Shown here in pieces: positions 14,973 to 64,000 of a stretch of DNA of 64,000 nt (the stretch's first letter is position 1; each line of letters opens with the position of its first letter). The translations under genes were made by a program, and so were the position numbers. Under the pieces are notes generated by a model. The model was not told where the DNA came from and searched no databases. It worked only from the letters and a program-made list of their open reading frames with translations. The stretch spans positions 1 to 64,000 of the IMG/VR virus record IMGVR_UViG_3300037067_002413; one strand, given 5' to 3'. This stretch comes from a virus. Taxonomy: Duplodnaviria > Caudoviricetes.

Positions 14973-15011
14973 GTGCAAATCCTACCTCGCCTAACCCGCA
15001 TCAAAAATGAG

Positions 15012-15086
15012 TGGGGAGAGCGGGAGTCGAACCCGCACATTGCGTCCCTTGTCGGGCCGTCTCTGCTCTTGTTGGACTATCTCCCC
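15012..15086 (-). ncRNA. tRNA-like element with an aberrant anticodon arm
   Basis: GGGGAGA/TCTCCCC acceptor stem and GCGGG-TTCGACT-CCCGC T arm; D and anticodon arms non-canonical. Confidence 0.6.
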
Positions 15087-20728: not shown

Positions 20729-20851
20729 TCGCATCGGTAGGGATCGAACCTACGACTACAGGCTCCCTGATAACCCTTGCCTACGACCCGTTGGGTAAAT
20801 GGCGGGAAGGGTAATTTGACCTGCGCCTCTTCCATCTGGGCTACGATGCGA
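20729..20851 (-). ncRNA. tRNA-Y RNA chimera (remote copy)
   Basis: CGCATCG/CGATGCG acceptor, D arm, CAGGT/GCCTG stem, GTAGG-TTCGATC-CCTAC T arm; the anticodon loop holds CCCTT..GCC..TTACCC-aac-GGGT(C)GT.GGC.AAGGG-TTATC. Confidence 0.8.
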
Positions 20852-60579: not shown

Positions 60580-60652
60580 TGCACTGTAGTTCAGTTGGTA
60601 GAACACCGCACTGTTAATGCGATGGTCCCTGGTTCGAGTCCAGGCGGTGCAG
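60580..60652 (+). tRNA. tRNA-Asn(GTT)
   Basis: TGCACTG/CGGTGCA acceptor, GTTC/GAAC D stem, CT-GTT-AA loop, CCTGG-TTCGAGT-CCAGG T arm; no encoded CCA. Confidence 0.9.
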
Positions 60653-60738: not shown

Positions 60739-61536
60739 ATGGAACGGCTTGCTCGATACGATGTTTATAATGTACCACTTGCTGATATTTGGATTGATCC
60801 AGATTTCAATTGCCGAAATGCCTTTACCTTCCAGTCTGTTAAGGGACTGGCGGATAACATCGAACAAACCGGACTTGAGATTCCAGTTATTCTTCAACGA
60901 CGAGAGGATAGTCAGATAGAATTTTCGGAACCATTCCGTTTGGTTGCCGGTTTTCGTCGTTTGGCAGCCGTGAAGACGTTTCTGCATTGGAATTCTATTC
61001 CTGCTAATGTTCGAGAAAACTTGAATGACCGAGCAGCAGAGATTCTAAATCTAACAGAGAATTTGGAACGCGAAGACCTCAATCCGCTGGAACAGGCACA
61101 AGCACTCACTCGTAGATTTCCGCCTGGAAGTTCGTTACGAACGATCGCTAAGGAGATGCACCGGGACGCGCATTGGGTACACCAACGCCTGCGGATTATG
61201 CAATTGCCAGAGGAGTTGCGTGAGAAGGTAGCGGCTAAGTTGCTCACACTCTTGGACGTAGACGTACTCGTGAAACTTCCACCAGAGGAGCAAATCGAGG
61301 CAGCCAAAGAAATTATTATTGCCAGAGGAAAGCGAACACGAAAACTCAACGTCAATCCGAAATTTCGGCGAAAGTTTAAGTATCGTCGTGGAAAGGAAGA
61401 GATCAATTTTAGAATTGGTCAACTGATGGAGGCGGGATTGAGTGGCCTCGTAACACGATTCGGTGCCTGGTGTGCGGGTTATATCAGTGATGACGAGTTC
61501 GATCAGGATATTTTGCAAGAAACACATAAAATATAG
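60739..61536 (+). CDS. ParB/Spo0J-like protein
   Basis: N.R..F....LA..I...GL..PV; LVAGFRRL.A; EN.EREDLNPLE.A; HTH. Confidence 0.88.
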   Translation: MERLARYDVYNVPLADIWIDPDFNCRNAFTFQSVKGLADNIEQTGLEIPVILQRREDSQIEFSEPFRLVAGFRRLAAVKTFLHWNSIPANVRENLNDRAAEILNLTENLEREDLNPLEQAQALTRRFPPGSSLRTIAKEMHRDAHWVHQRLRIMQLPEELREKVAAKLLTLLDVDVLVKLPPEEQIEAAKEIIIARGKRTRKLNVNPKFRRKFKYRRGKEEINFRIGQLMEAGLSGLVTRFGAWCAGYISDDEFDQDILQETHKI

Positions 61537-61574
61537 ACCAGATTTCACCTATTTTTACGTCGTCCTATTAGAGG
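61533..61574 (+). promoter_or_regulatory. Class II promoter-like element, copy 2 (heads the Y RNA/Ro60 operon)
   Basis: 38/42 identical to the reverse complement of 21496-21537; ends within the first bases of Y unit 1. Confidence 0.75.
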
Positions 61575-61630
61575 GCCGATGTGGATGGGTTATCTTGGAA
61601 CGACTCCCCACCCGCACAAACTTGCCCTCT
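61570..61630 (+). ncRNA. Y RNA-like unit 1 (free-standing)
   Basis: AGAGGGC(C)GA...TTATC...TTGCCCTCT terminal stem with bulged C. Confidence 0.8.
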
Positions 61631-61635
61631 TTTAT

Positions 61636-61760
61636 GGATGCCGTAGTTCAGTTGGTAGAACACTAAAACCGCTGACCAACCTTTGCCCTGCAAGGGCCAA
61701 ATGGAAAGCGTTATCACCTGTTAAGTGAGAGGTCGCGGGTTCGAGTCCCGCCGGTATCCG
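61636..61760 (+). ncRNA. tRNA-Asn(GTT)-Y RNA chimera (unit 2)
   Basis: Full cloverleaf with a ~50-nt insert (61665-61714): CGCT..CCA..TTTGCCC-tgcaa-GGGC(C)AAA TGG..AGCG-TTATC. Confidence 0.8.
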
Positions 61761-61766
61761 TTTTAT

Positions 61767-61893
61767 GTACGTTGTAGCTCAGCGGTAGAGCACAAGTCAA
61801 AGAACCGCTTTCAAGTTTCTTGCCCTATGGGCCGAACTGAAAGCGTTATCAACAAGGAACTTGTGGTCGTGGGTTCGAGTCCCGCCAACGTGC
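61767..61893 (+). ncRNA. tRNA-Y RNA chimera (unit 3)
   Basis: GTACGTTG/CAACGTGC acceptor; CAAGT/ACTTG stem; loop contains CGCTTTCA..CTTGCCC-tat-GGGC(C)GA..TGAAAGCG-TTATC. Confidence 0.8.
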
Positions 61894-61896
61894 TTT

Positions 61897-61993
61897 GGGT
61901 GTGAAGCTCAATTGGTTGAGCACCCGTTTTCACCATTAACTCGAAAGGGTCGAATGAAAATGGTTATCGTAGGTTCGAGTCCTATCGCACCCG
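61897..61993 (+). ncRNA. tRNA-Y RNA chimera (unit 4)
   Basis: GGGTGTG/CGCACCC acceptor; anticodon arm replaced by CCGTTTTCA..ACTC-gaaa-GGGT(C)GA.TGAAAATGG; TTATC forms the variable loop. Confidence 0.75.
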
Positions 61994-61995
61994 CT

Positions 61996-62059
61996 CCGGG
62001 CCGATGCTGATTGGTTATCACATCTTTATTGTCAAACACCAATCGCACACCTTGCCCGG
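61996..62059 (+). ncRNA. Y RNA-like unit 5
   Basis: CCGGGC(C)GA TGC.GATTGG TTATC ... CCAATC GCA ... TTGCCCGG. Confidence 0.8.
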
Positions 62060-62066
62060 CAATATA

Positions 62067-62159
62067 CTTGGACCGTGGAAGTTCGTTTATTGACGGCCAT
62101 TTCCGAAGTTGTACTTTAGAAATGGCCGCCCATAACGATTGTCCAACTTTTTGTCCAAG
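62067..62159 (+). ncRNA. Y RNA-like unit 6, with internal hairpin
   Basis: CTTGGAC(C)GT...TTATT...TTGTCCAAG; inner CGGCCATTTC/GAAATGGCCG. Confidence 0.7.
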
Positions 62160-62169
62160 CCTTGGATAT

Positions 62170-62244
62170 TTGGGCCGTCGCTGAATCCGTTATCTATGTC
62201 ACTCATAATGACTCCAGTATCCCGGACCAGCACCTTTTGCCTGA
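62170..62244 (+). ncRNA. Y RNA-like unit 7
   Basis: TTGGGC(C)GT.GCTG..TCCG TTATC ... CGGA.CAGC ... TTGCCTGA. Confidence 0.7.
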
Positions 62245-62257
62245 GTCATTGAATGTG

Positions 62258-62314
62258 TGGGCCGACGTTCGTGGGTTATCAGGCATAAGACACCCACGGC
62301 AATTTTCTAGCCTA
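62258..62314 (+). ncRNA. Y RNA-like unit 8 (weaker terminal stem)
   Basis: TGGGC(C)GA..TTCGTGGG TTATC ... CCCACGG ... TAGCCTA. Confidence 0.65.
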
Positions 62315-62329
62315 ACCTTTGGAGAAAAC

Positions 62330-63928
62330 ATGAAGACTTTAGCCAAGCACGTTTCAGTTCGGATTACTCCGCAGACTCGACCGATTCCTGGAAAGAATCA
62401 AGAGCAGAACAACGCAGGTGGGTATACGTTCGTTCTGGATTGTTGGGGACGACTTCAACGGTTTTTGATTCTCGGTTCCGAGGGCGGGACGTATTATGTC
62501 GGCGAACAAAAGTTGACGGAACAAAATGCGTCCGCCGTTGCTGAATGTGGTGAAGAAGACGCGGCCAAAGCCGTGGAGATGATCGCCTCGATCAGCGAAT
62601 CGGGCCGTGCTCCAAAGAATGATTCTGCTATTTTCGCCCTGGCACTTTTGGCGAGTCAGGCGGACGATACTGTTCGACGACTGGCATTGGCTGCGTTGCC
62701 GCGTGTTTGCCGCACGGCTACCCATTTGTTCCAATTCGTTGCGAACTGCAAGGAACTGCGCGGTTGGGGCCGTGGATTGCGTGAGGCGGTCGCCGGCTGG
62801 TACAACGAGAAGCCGGTTGACAAACTCGCCTATCAGGTGACGAAATACAGGAACCGTGCCGGCTACACGCATCGGGATATTCTCCGGCTTAGTCATCCGA
62901 AGACGGGCGATTACGAACGAAACAATCTATACCGTTGGATTACGAAGGGGACTCTCCCAGACGAAATCACGGTTGCGTTTAATCCGTTGGCTTTGATTTT
63001 TGGCTTGGAAGCAGCAAATGCTCTTTTGCCTACCGACGTGAAGGGGATGATCGGACTGATCGAACTTTACGGGTTGACTTTGGAGCATGTGCCCAATCAT
63101 TTCCTTAGCAGCCCGGCTGTATGGGAAGCCTTGCTTCCGAATCTGCCGCCCACGGCAATGATCCGAAATCTGGGTAAGATGACCAGCGTCGGCCTTCTGA
63201 AACCACTATCGGTATCTGCGAATATGGTTTGCAACGTGCTGACCAATCCCGATCGCCTTCGTGGTGCTCGCGTGCATCCACTATCCGTCTTGATTGCCAC
63301 CGACACATACAGTCAAGGCCACGGCGTCAAGGGGTCGCTGACATGGCAGCCGGTGGGACAAATCAGGGACGCCCTTGAGGAAGCATTTTATTCTGCCTTT
63401 GACGCCGTGGAGTTGACGGGTAAACGACATTTGTTGAGTCTGGATGTGTCCGGTTCGATGGGCTGGTCGTTACTTGCCAACACTAGATTGAGTGCTGCCA
63501 AGGCCGCCGCTTGCATGGCGATGGTTACGCATCGACTTGAGCCGCAAACTCATGTGATGGGTTTCTCCAACGATCTGGTTCCGATCGACATTTCCAAGAA
63601 GGAACGTCTCGATGCCTTGGTAACCAAGATTGGTCGTATTCCGATGGGCGGAACTGATTGTAGTCTGCCCATGCTCTACGCGGCTCAACAGAAGTTGGAC
63701 GTGGATGCCTTTGTGGTATACACGGATAACGAGACTTGGGGTGGGAAGATTCACCCCATTCAAGCTCTCAAGATTTACCGTCAAGCGAGCGGCATCAACG
63801 CCAAGTTGATTGTCGTCGGAATGACCGCCAGCCAGTTCACGATCGCCGATCCTTCTGATGCCGGCATGTTGGACGTTGTTGGTTTTGACGCTTCCTGCCC
63901 AGCCGTAATGGCTGATTTCGTTCGTTGA
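62330..63928 (+). CDS. rsr: Ro60 / TROVE-domain RNA-binding protein
   Basis: N.AGGY.F....W..L.RFLILGSEGGTYY; KY.NR.G..H.D.LRL.HP; AMIRNLGKMT; vWA MIDAS DVSGSM, GGTD, YTDNETW; GGAG RBS at 62321. Confidence 0.95.
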   Translation: MKTLAKHVSVRITPQTRPIPGKNQEQNNAGGYTFVLDCWGRLQRFLILGSEGGTYYVGEQKLTEQNASAVAECGEEDAAKAVEMIASISESGRAPKNDSAIFALALLASQADDTVRRLALAALPRVCRTATHLFQFVANCKELRGWGRGLREAVAGWYNEKPVDKLAYQVTKYRNRAGYTHRDILRLSHPKTGDYERNNLYRWITKGTLPDEITVAFNPLALIFGLEAANALLPTDVKGMIGLIELYGLTLEHVPNHFLSSPAVWEALLPNLPPTAMIRNLGKMTSVGLLKPLSVSANMVCNVLTNPDRLRGARVHPLSVLIATDTYSQGHGVKGSLTWQPVGQIRDALEEAFYSAFDAVELTGKRHLLSLDVSGSMGWSLLANTRLSAAKAAACMAMVTHRLEPQTHVMGFSNDLVPIDISKKERLDALVTKIGRIPMGGTDCSLPMLYAAQQKLDVDAFVVYTDNETWGGKIHPIQALKIYRQASGINAKLIVVGMTASQFTIADPSDAGMLDVVGFDASCPAVMADFVR

Positions 63929-64000
63929 TTTAGCGGGGCTTCGGTGTGTGCAAAAGCACTGAACCTATAACCGCACGGTTGATGACTAGGACTGCCTCAG

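Follow-up and report, generated by a model that had tools for sequence, protein, structure and literature searches.

Upstream of a phage Ro60 gene, tRNA-shaped units carry a Y RNA-type module in reversed strand order

We analyzed the first 64 kb of a 146-kb tailed phage genome rated complete by CheckV (Duplodnaviria; Caudoviricetes; IMG/VR record IMGVR_UViG_3300037067_002413, positions 1 to 64,000; "the window" in the following). The window encodes a Ro60 protein, and a packed array of seven Y-type modules fills the 760 bases upstream of its start codon. Four of these modules are plain hairpins in the usual Y RNA order (GGGCCGA, then GGUUAUC, then UUGCCC), and the other three are shaped like tRNAs and carry the Y helix with its strands reversed. 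A fourth tRNA-shaped unit stands alone, 40 kb from Ro60. These features, in window coordinates and with lengths in nucleotides (nt) or base pairs (bp), are the following:

20729-20850, minus strand: fourth tRNA-order Y unit (type II), isolated; from sequence, fold and ARAGORN with introns allowed (-i); 70.5 bits with covariance model R1 (described below)
61570-61632, plus strand: unit 1, plain Y hairpin in the normal strand order GGGCCGA...GGGUUAUC...UUGCCC; from sequence and fold
61636-61759, plus strand: unit 2 (type I), complete cloverleaf with the Y module between nt 26 and 27
Parts of unit 2: G-1 61636; acceptor stem 61637-61643/61752-61758; D arm 61646-61661; T arm 61735-61751; C73 61759
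Y module of unit 2, 61669-61715: UUGCCC 61683-61688, a loop, GGGCCAA 61694-61700, GUUAUC 61710-61715
Anticodon-like hairpin of unit 2, 61713-61729: 4-bp stem and 7-nt loop CUGUUAA, with the Y module 5' of the stem
61767-61893, plus strand: unit 3 (type II), with a 5-bp stem in anticodon position enclosing the Y module
Parts of unit 3: G-1 61767; acceptor stem 61768-61774/61886-61892; D arm 61777-61791; T arm 61869-61885; C73 61893
Anticodon-position stem of unit 3: CAAGU/ACUUG, 61793-61797/61859-61863
Y module of unit 3: stem 2 61806-61813/61838-61845; UUGCCC 61820-61825; loop UAU; GGGCCGA 61829-61835; UUAUC 61846-61850
61897-61993, plus strand: unit 4 (type III), 97 nt, with the second helix of the module in the position of the anticodon stem
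Parts of unit 4: acceptor stem 61897-61903/61986-61992; D arm 61906-61921; T arm 61969-61985; G73 61993
Module of unit 4: 9-bp helix 61924-61932/61955-61963; apical Ro-type helix UUAACUC-GAAA-GGGUCGA 61936-61953; UUAUC 61964-61968 as the variable loop
61997-62060, plus strand: unit 5, plain Y hairpin whose stem begins CCGGGCCGA; from sequence and fold (z -3.3)
62172-62321, plus strand: two weaker plain Y-like modules, GGGCCGU...GUUAUC...UUUGCCU and GGGCCGA...GGGUUAUC; from sequence and weak folds
62330-63928, plus strand: Ro60 gene (TROVE and vWA domains), 532 amino acids; Pfam vWA_Ro60 6.9e-67, TROVE 6.6e-45

Units 2, 3 and 4 each possess an acceptor stem of their own, perfectly paired over 7 bp (GAUGCCG/CGGUAUC, UACGUUG/CAACGUG and GGGUGUG/CGCACCC, respectively), a canonical D arm with G18 and G19, and a T arm with GGUUCGAGUCC. 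The strands of the Y helix are swapped, with UUGCCC ahead of a 3-4 nt loop and GGGCCGA, with its bulged C, behind it; next come a second helix of 7-9 bp and UUAUC. The consensus Y RNA helix GG(U/G)CCGA/UUG(A/C)CC with its bulged C occurs in units 3 and 4, and unit 2 has it with a single change (GGGCCAA); the Ro motif GNCGAA is found as GCCGAA and GUCGAA in units 3 and 4. The helix is thus not made by the 5' and 3' ends of the RNA, as in Y RNAs; its strands are reversed and joined by a loop. Three consecutive cloverleaves carrying a reversed Y module had been proposed in an initial annotation made from the sequence alone, and each of their acceptor, D and T arms is indeed confirmed in the sequence. 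The graded series it had seen, from an insertion ahead of an anticodon hairpin to replacement of the whole arm, is an accurate description as well: the module lies between nt 26 and 27 in unit 2 and inside a 5-bp stem in unit 3, and UUAUC becomes the variable loop in unit 4. Yet this series is not a gradient within one genome, since the three forms recur elsewhere as stable subtypes.

The minimum-free-energy structure of unit 2 is cloverleaf-like, and unit 4 gives a clean cloverleaf fold (z -3.9). With R1, units 2, 3 and 4 score 116.4, 98.8 and 72.8 bits. Because G-1 pairs with C73 in units 2 and 3, positions 61636 and 61767 are probably part of these units. The isolated unit has the acceptor strands CGCAUCG/CGAUGCG, the helix UUUACCC-AAC-GGGUCGU, GGUUAUC and a T arm, and lies between a stop codon and a terminator-like hairpin (20716-20694, terminator scan). 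The Rfam tRNA model RF00005 recovers unit 3 (45 bits) and unit 4 (43 bits) above its gathering score of 29, with insertions of 60 and 29 nt in the anticodon arm, and unit 2 is found only by ARAGORN -i and R1, not at the Rfam tRNA threshold. A look for "intron-containing" tRNA calls near Ro60, as the initial annotation advised, yields units 2 and 3: with introns allowed, ARAGORN reports them as tRNA-Asn(gtt) and tRNA-Leu(aag), with inserts of 50 and 54 nt, respectively. It names the isolated unit "tRNA-Pro(agg)" with a 48-nt insert.

The elements of these units can in principle be read in two registers, as tRNA-order units or, across unit boundaries, as YrlA RNAs. In YrlA the T arm precedes the D arm and the acceptor stem is closed; in the units described here the D arm comes first and the 7-bp acceptor is open. 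The covariance model R1, built from 24 units, gives 29 matches of 65-116 bits on 19 viral sources, and ordinary tRNAs reach at most about 55 bits. In these 29 viral sequences, pairing amounts to 99.5% in the acceptor, 100% in the D stem, 99.3% in the T stem and 79% in the second helix, with double changes at all seven pairs of the acceptor. The covariation values were reached by none of 500 shuffles, and slid controls drop to about 45%. The acceptor figures lean on the way in which the seed units were selected, and a blind test therefore matters. For this, candidates were taken from 80 viral Ro60 loci by the D motif, GUUAUC and the T motif only, the acceptor being ignored: all seven acceptor pairs form in 22 of 38 candidates, as compared to none of 228 shifted controls. 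In the alignment of 24 sequences, there is no variation at G18, G19 and most positions of the T arm (GGUUC.A..CC), and almost none at G57. Moreover, singletons such as the unit at 20729-20850 (minus strand) and the one at locus L036 have no adjacent T or D arm to borrow and cannot be read in the YrlA register, which supports the tRNA order. From these alignments we regard the tRNA register as the supported one, with a connectivity opposite to that of YrlA: the free ends would lie at the acceptor stem, and the Ro stem would be closed. The opposite topology postulated at the outset is thus backed by acceptor covariation and singleton units, and also by a near-exclusive distribution with respect to normal YrlA and by a circular-permutation alignment, both presented below.

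We assembled a census set of 161 Ro60 loci (80 viral and 80 bacterial ones in addition to this window) and applied strict criteria, namely an acceptor stem paired at 7/7 positions, a D stem, a T stem and Y signatures. The census returned 75 distinct units at 51 of the 161 Ro60 loci. On the bacterial set, approximately 65 hits of R1 exceed 60 bits, and as many as six or seven units accompany a single Ro60 gene (L091, L095). Carriers are phage contigs as well as Polyangiaceae, Kofleriaceae, Haliangiales, Sandaracinaceae, Longimicrobium, Abditibacteriaceae and Armatimonadota, and thus belong to Myxococcota, Gemmatimonadota and Abditibacteriota/Armatimonadota. Five whole bacterial genomes (3.8-9.7 Mb) have R1 hits of at least 65 bits only at the Ro60 locus; one of them, G004 (locus L102), is unpublished, and no claim depends solely on it. 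At least 8 of the 151 Myxococcota genomes sampled have a match at E <= 1e-15.

Cultured phages with Ro60 account for 369 records, among which we sampled Cashline, BlueNGold, Catera, Comrade, Trina, Magritte, FuzzBuster and Phosso. The best hits in cultured phages are cross-register readings of normal YrlA or ordinary tRNAs, and the hits in Myrna and Phabba DNA are merely tandem tRNAs. Two deposited annotations drew our attention, both just upstream of a Ro gene: a "tRNA-Arg(tct)" of Microbacterium phage Magritte (L173 1934-2010) and a 209-nt pseudo "tRNA-OTHER" of Rhodococcus phage Trina (L172 2143-2351), where a Band-7 gene immediately follows Ro. Both overlap Y-type elements (GGUUAUC, a hairpin and a T arm) and, rather than tRNAs, probably represent Y RNAs.

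Across the 75 units, the apex of the module is conserved. A closed 4-bp helix with a bulged C is found in 67 of them, 63 retain the G-U pair that follows the bulge, and the loop of the Ro helix measures 3-9 nt. The commonest strands of this helix, GGGCCGA and UUGCCC, are the very motif of the plain Y hairpins at the same loci. Type I, represented by unit 2, comprises 21 of the 75 units when strict criteria are applied. Its hairpin has 4 bp and an A-G or A-A mismatch, with a stem that covaries at 30-40 and 31-39, and its 7-nt loop reads C32, U33 (21/21), NNN, A37, A38, the triplet being variable (GUU four times, UCC three times, GAU, GCU, CAU-like and others). Type II, to which unit 3 and the isolated unit belong, has a 5-bp stem that covaries as well (CAAGU/ACUUG, CAGGU/ACCUG, GCUGU/ACAGC). 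Type III, of about 97 nt and with UUAUC as the variable loop, is represented by unit 4 and by L005 2260-2357, L009 2253-2349 and L014 1361-1455. Close relatives keep the order of the subtypes: type I precedes type II in L003 and L004, and type II precedes type III in L005. None of the three subtypes has what characterizes a tRNA, that is a 5-bp anticodon stem and a 7-nt loop right after nt 26 together with a coherent identity. Types II and III have no anticodon loop, and in type I a 47-nt insertion lies ahead of a 4-bp stem and the triplet is at odds with the discriminator. One further sequence, L008 2251-2337 (87 nt), is a natural deletion form of type II, in which GCGUUAUC and the 5-bp stem in anticodon position are kept and the Ro helix is lost.

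Over a stretch of 44 nt, unit 2 shares 97.7% identity with the intergenic region ahead of the Ro gene in Microbacterium phage FuzzBuster. The FuzzBuster RNA has the normal YrlA layout, with a closed acceptor and its ends in the Ro stem, and contains the same CUGUUAA hairpin. When this YrlA is rotated at its acceptor loop, it aligns with unit 2 from end to end with 100 of 123 positions identical (score 138, versus 95.5 for the unrotated YrlA and 60.7 +/- 5.9 for shuffled sequences). Unit 2 is therefore a circular permutation of a YrlA of known type. Closed-acceptor forms occur in 37 loci and open-acceptor forms in 51, but both in only seven, five of which represent tandem units read across their boundary. 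On the Ro60 protein tree, the layout can be explained by 8 changes, as compared to 23.5 (minimum 17) with shuffled labels. The normal layout occupies the Verrucomicrobiota clade, save two loci that carry both, and the permuted one the Myxococcota, Gemmatimonadota and Abditibacteriota clades and the clade of the window's phage. Because relatives share layout labels, this indicates stable inheritance with few switches and not co-evolution.

These RNAs thus share with YrlA (RF02553; Chen et al., 2014, PMC4201824; Wang et al., 2018, 10.1101/312249) the location beside Ro60/Rsr, a helix downstream of the GNCGAA Ro strand, a domain that resembles tRNA in its canonical T arm, D arm and elbow, and the same circular order of parts. 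They differ in the break point: YrlA has its ends in the Ro stem and a closed acceptor, while here the ends lie in a 7-bp acceptor and the Ro helix is closed by a loop. In addition, many units contain an anticodon-loop mimic or a 5-bp stem in anticodon position. In M. smegmatis, YrlA has a 7-bp acceptor stem; RNase P cuts this RNA, which gains CCA in vivo (PMC4201824). It is likewise a Ro60-associated tRNA mimic with a 7-bp acceptor and, after processing, an open CCA-bearing end. Yet there the cutting of a closed stem yields an RNA in two pieces, with the ends of the Ro stem open, whereas the units described here are encoded in one piece and in tRNA order. With ordinary tRNAs (RF00005) they have the acceptor, D and T arms in common, and units 3 and 4 even exceed the Rfam tRNA threshold. 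From ordinary, intron-bearing or permuted tRNA genes they are distinguished by the missing usable anticodon arm of types II and III, by an insert that is a conserved helix of protein-binding type, and by inconsistent identity elements. An RNA-repair-linked tRNA-like RNA, said to occur occasionally beside Rsr, is likened to authentic tRNA with no Ro module mentioned; it is set apart by description only, and an overlap with our units is possible.

At E values up to 10, the Rfam 15 families reported for the locus are limited to tRNA, sub-threshold YrlA, Y_RNA (RF00019, 19.5 bits, below threshold, on the two weaker modules directly ahead of the Ro60 start codon), the nematode stem-bulge RNA family RF01656 (a weak match to unit 1, 27.2 bits) and a chance-level purD. 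None of them has this layout, so that the possibility raised in the initial annotation of an existing family for this topology finds no support in Rfam 15. We found no description of the layout in the searchable literature, a search that was incomplete and leaves a prior description possible.

YrlA has been proposed to originate from a dimeric tRNA (Sim and Wolin, 2018, as cited in 10.1101/312249). Like our observations, this model involves tRNA-like units in tandem, in which a YrlA can be read from a T arm through the spacer into the D arm that follows. The model differs in being a hypothesis on ancestry and, in the form in which it is cited there, names no extant tRNA-order Y RNAs. Locus L103 (5626-6068) has three tandem units in tRNA order with a common acceptor sequence, GCAGACG/CGUCUGC, and because this sequence is common to all three, a YrlA with closed acceptor can also fold there from each T arm, the spacer and the D arm of the following unit. 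L103 is thus a living example of the situation that the dimeric-tRNA model requires and shows how the YrlA register could arise. The suggestion that units 2 to 4 are evolutionary intermediates between tRNA and YrlA can accordingly be kept only in part: the three forms are stable recurrent subtypes, but arrays such as L103 do show a possible route to the YrlA register.

The ends of the units deserve a closer look. The pair G-1:C73 is the identity mark of bacterial tRNA-His. It is present in 19 of 75 units, including units 2 and 3, as opposed to 10 of 215 ordinary tRNAs of the same loci, and the association of G-1 with C73 is strong (Fisher p 1e-12); two bacterial units encode CCA after C73. We discarded the more general idea of an 8-bp acceptor stem, as pairing between -1 and 73 is not enriched (50/75 versus 130/215 ordinary tRNAs, p 0.41). 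Extensions of the acceptor by at least two extra pairs occur in 18 of 75 units and 4 of 215 ordinary tRNAs. At bacterial loci, CCA is encoded by 7 of 51 units and 27 of 179 neighboring tRNAs. Units are spaced 2-10 nt from their neighbors; in the window, unit 1 ends about 6 nt ahead of unit 2, and the stem of unit 5 begins 3-4 nt 3' of the discriminator of unit 4. The latter is one of the junctions in which the 5' strand of a plain Y RNA follows within 18 nt (unit, 2-8 nt, GGGCCGA), found for 15 of 75 units against a background of 3.3%. The surroundings of 54 of the 75 units were classed as "other", and most bacterial units have no plain Y RNA following them.

It seems likely to us that the units are non-decoding, YrlA-like Y RNAs in native tRNA strand order and putative partners of the phage Ro60. 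Such an RNA would consist of an intact tRNA body (acceptor, D arm, T arm and elbow) with free 5' and 3' ends, and of a second helix in the position of the anticodon arm, capped by a Ro-type helix (GGGCCGA/UUGCCC with its bulged C) that would be closed by a short loop rather than formed by the ends of the RNA. The array, probably together with Ro60, would be transcribed as a single precursor. Host RNase P could then cleave 5' of every tRNA-shaped unit, with endonucleolytic cutting or trimming 3' of the discriminator; this would set the tRNA-shaped units free and at the same time define the ends of the interspersed plain Y hairpins. Ro60 is expected to dock on the closed helix and to present the tRNA-like domain as an effector module in the manner of Ro60-YrlA particles, except that the acceptor end would be accessible. 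The sequences show the architecture with its conservation and covariation, the linkage to Ro60 and the permuted relation to YrlA; binding to Ro60 and this processing route, and with them a function in RNA surveillance or repair, are what we infer. As precedents for single steps, YrlA of M. smegmatis is processed as described above, and the Ro60 of a Thermus phage binds Y-like RNAs encoded upstream of its gene and forms a complex with host PNPase (PMC12135203).

Several observations weigh against this interpretation. The Ro helix is imperfect in two units of the window, unit 2 having GGGCCAA (A for G) and unit 4 a G-U pair as well as an additional A facing the bulged C. The sequencing runs listed for 61400-62500 are all DNA metagenomes, with no RNA run among them. 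None of 24 units at viral loci encodes CCA, as opposed to 18 of 36 ordinary tRNAs, and no CCA-adding enzyme was found in the phage genome. The acceptor extensions of a quarter of the units, by 2-4 further pairs, could hinder RNase P. No unit above 55 bits was found with R1 in the sampled cultured phages. Finally, a promoter scan detected no sigma-70-type promoter upstream of the array or of the isolated unit, a result that says little because the host is not identified.

Several other explanations were weighed against that of non-decoding Y RNAs. The units might be biochemical tRNAs while docked on Ro60, either charged (for example by histidyl-tRNA synthetase, HisRS, via G-1:C73) or serving as decoys or sensors for toxins and for nucleases that attack the anticodon loop or the acceptor end of tRNAs; aminoacylation on Ro60 and decoys for anticodon nucleases had been considered in the initial annotation. 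The excess of G-1:C73, the type I loops, which are faithful mimics of anticodon loops with varied triplets, and the fact that bacterial units encode CCA as frequently as adjacent tRNAs speak in its favor. However, the His mark is missing from most units, types II and III offer no anticodon loop, CCA is encoded by no viral unit, and the whole idea is read from sequence, so that we hold it to be unlikely. Regarding HisRS in particular, it is doubtful, if conceivable, that the quarter of units with full tRNA-His acceptor identity, units 2 and 3 included, would be matured like tRNA-His and charged on Ro60, and that the tRNA-order form may be ancestral to YrlA through a register shift in tandem arrays. 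If the charging did take place, aminoacylation would be seen in Y RNAs for the first time, or the units would tether a synthetase to Ro60.

The units might also act mainly as processing punctuation, another proposal of the initial annotation, recruiting RNase P and 3' nucleases that free the plain Y RNAs, the released pieces having no role of their own. The tight packing and the enriched junctions with a plain Y 5' strand would fit such a role, and the MALAT1/mascRNA transcript, as cited in 10.1101/312249, provides a precedent for a tRNA-like processing structure. Punctuation would not, however, need a conserved Ro-binding helix within the unit; moreover, the isolated unit at 20729-20850 has no adjacent Y RNA, and a plain Y RNA is absent after most bacterial units, which makes this explanation quite unlikely.

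Very improbable, in our view, are real tRNA genes with a removable insert that would give rise to ordinary decoding tRNAs (Asn, Leu and others). The ARAGORN calls of tRNA-Asn, tRNA-Leu and tRNA-Pro with inserts of 48-54 nt suggest such genes, as does the C32 U33 NNN A37 A38 loop kept by type I units. Yet the insert is a conserved, covarying Ro-type helix that matches no intron or ribozyme family (cmscan, E up to 10), and its removal from types II and III would leave no anticodon loop. The stems of type I have only 4 bp and an A-G or A-A mismatch, and "anticodon" and discriminator disagree, as for GUU with G-1:C73. Neither a splicing endonuclease (tRNA_int_endo) nor RtcB was found in the phage genome. 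Excision of the inserts to give ordinary tRNAs, which the initial annotation had named as evidence that would overturn its view, was assessed computationally: it appears unlikely for elements of 47-60 nt that consist of a conserved Ro-type helix, match no ribozyme family and are accompanied by no phage endonuclease or RtcB.

Hardly credible is a register artifact, in which ordinary YrlA copies lie head to tail (GGGCCGA, T arm, spacer, next D arm, next UUGCCC): the Rfam YrlA model RF02553 does align exactly in the tandem register, but only across units 2-3 and with a best score of 28.7 bits, far under its gathering score of 69; the second-helix strands of adjacent units can cross-pair because the units are paralogues; and both registers fold at L103 owing to its common acceptor sequence, whereas the spacers between units 2, 3 and 4 form no closed acceptor stem (four consecutive pairs at best, three of them G-U), the acceptor strands covary inside units, the Ro helix would have to be cut within a loop of 3-4 nt, and isolated units exist.

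Some additional features of the genome complement this picture of the locus. An ordinary tRNA-Asn gene lies 1 kb upstream of unit 2:

60580-60652, plus strand: ordinary tRNA-Asn(GUU); ARAGORN and Rfam, 67 bits

Its D arm has the same sequence as the corresponding region of unit 2 (61644-61662, UAGUUCAGUUGGUAGAACA), and the unit of the closest relative (L003 1876-1997) instead has GCUC...GAGC at the D arm. This could reflect gene conversion between the tRNA and the Y unit, or a coincidence. Between plain Y units 5 and 6, the region 62075-62175 contains a stable hairpin (GGCCAUUUC...GAAAUGGCC) that has no Y motif and matches purD only at chance level (19.9 bits). A noncoding stretch lies directly 3' of the Ro60 stop codon (window 63933-64000 onward; L083 about 930-1095). 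Farther downstream, 13 kb from Ro60, the genome encodes an RNA ligase, the only one of this phage (PF09414, 71 bits; genome 76591-77133, L183), and a calcineurin-like phosphoesterase is found at L083 7839-8837; both are possible RNA-repair partners. Two more unusual tRNA calls were obtained. At genome positions 93609-93965 (L084 11609-11964), ARAGORN -i reports tRNA-Gly(gcc) and tRNA-Thr(ggt), with inserts of 6 and 174 nt, respectively; R1 has weak hits there (30.5 and 24.9 bits), and the two may be a pair of intron-bearing or unusual tRNAs. On the minus strand of the window, at 15011-15086, ARAGORN finds a tRNA-Cys with the anticodon ACA and not the usual GCA.

Bacterial Y RNAs are viewed as tRNA mimics with a sealed acceptor end and have hence been argued to be unable to enter tRNA pathways. 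A widespread sister form with an open acceptor would make RNase P, the CCA enzyme, synthetases, EF-Tu and acceptor-end toxins conceivable partners, and would provide living examples for the proposal that YrlA originated from tandem tRNAs. Genes of this kind may be annotated as intron-bearing or pseudo-tRNAs, as in the intron mode of ARAGORN here, or be missed altogether, for which a dedicated covariance model is the remedy. In an earlier survey, hits that overlapped tandem tRNAs were discarded, and few YrlA candidates were found in delta-proteobacteria (Chen et al., PMC4201824); the presence of the permuted form at many Ro60 loci of Myxococcota may help to explain this scarcity.

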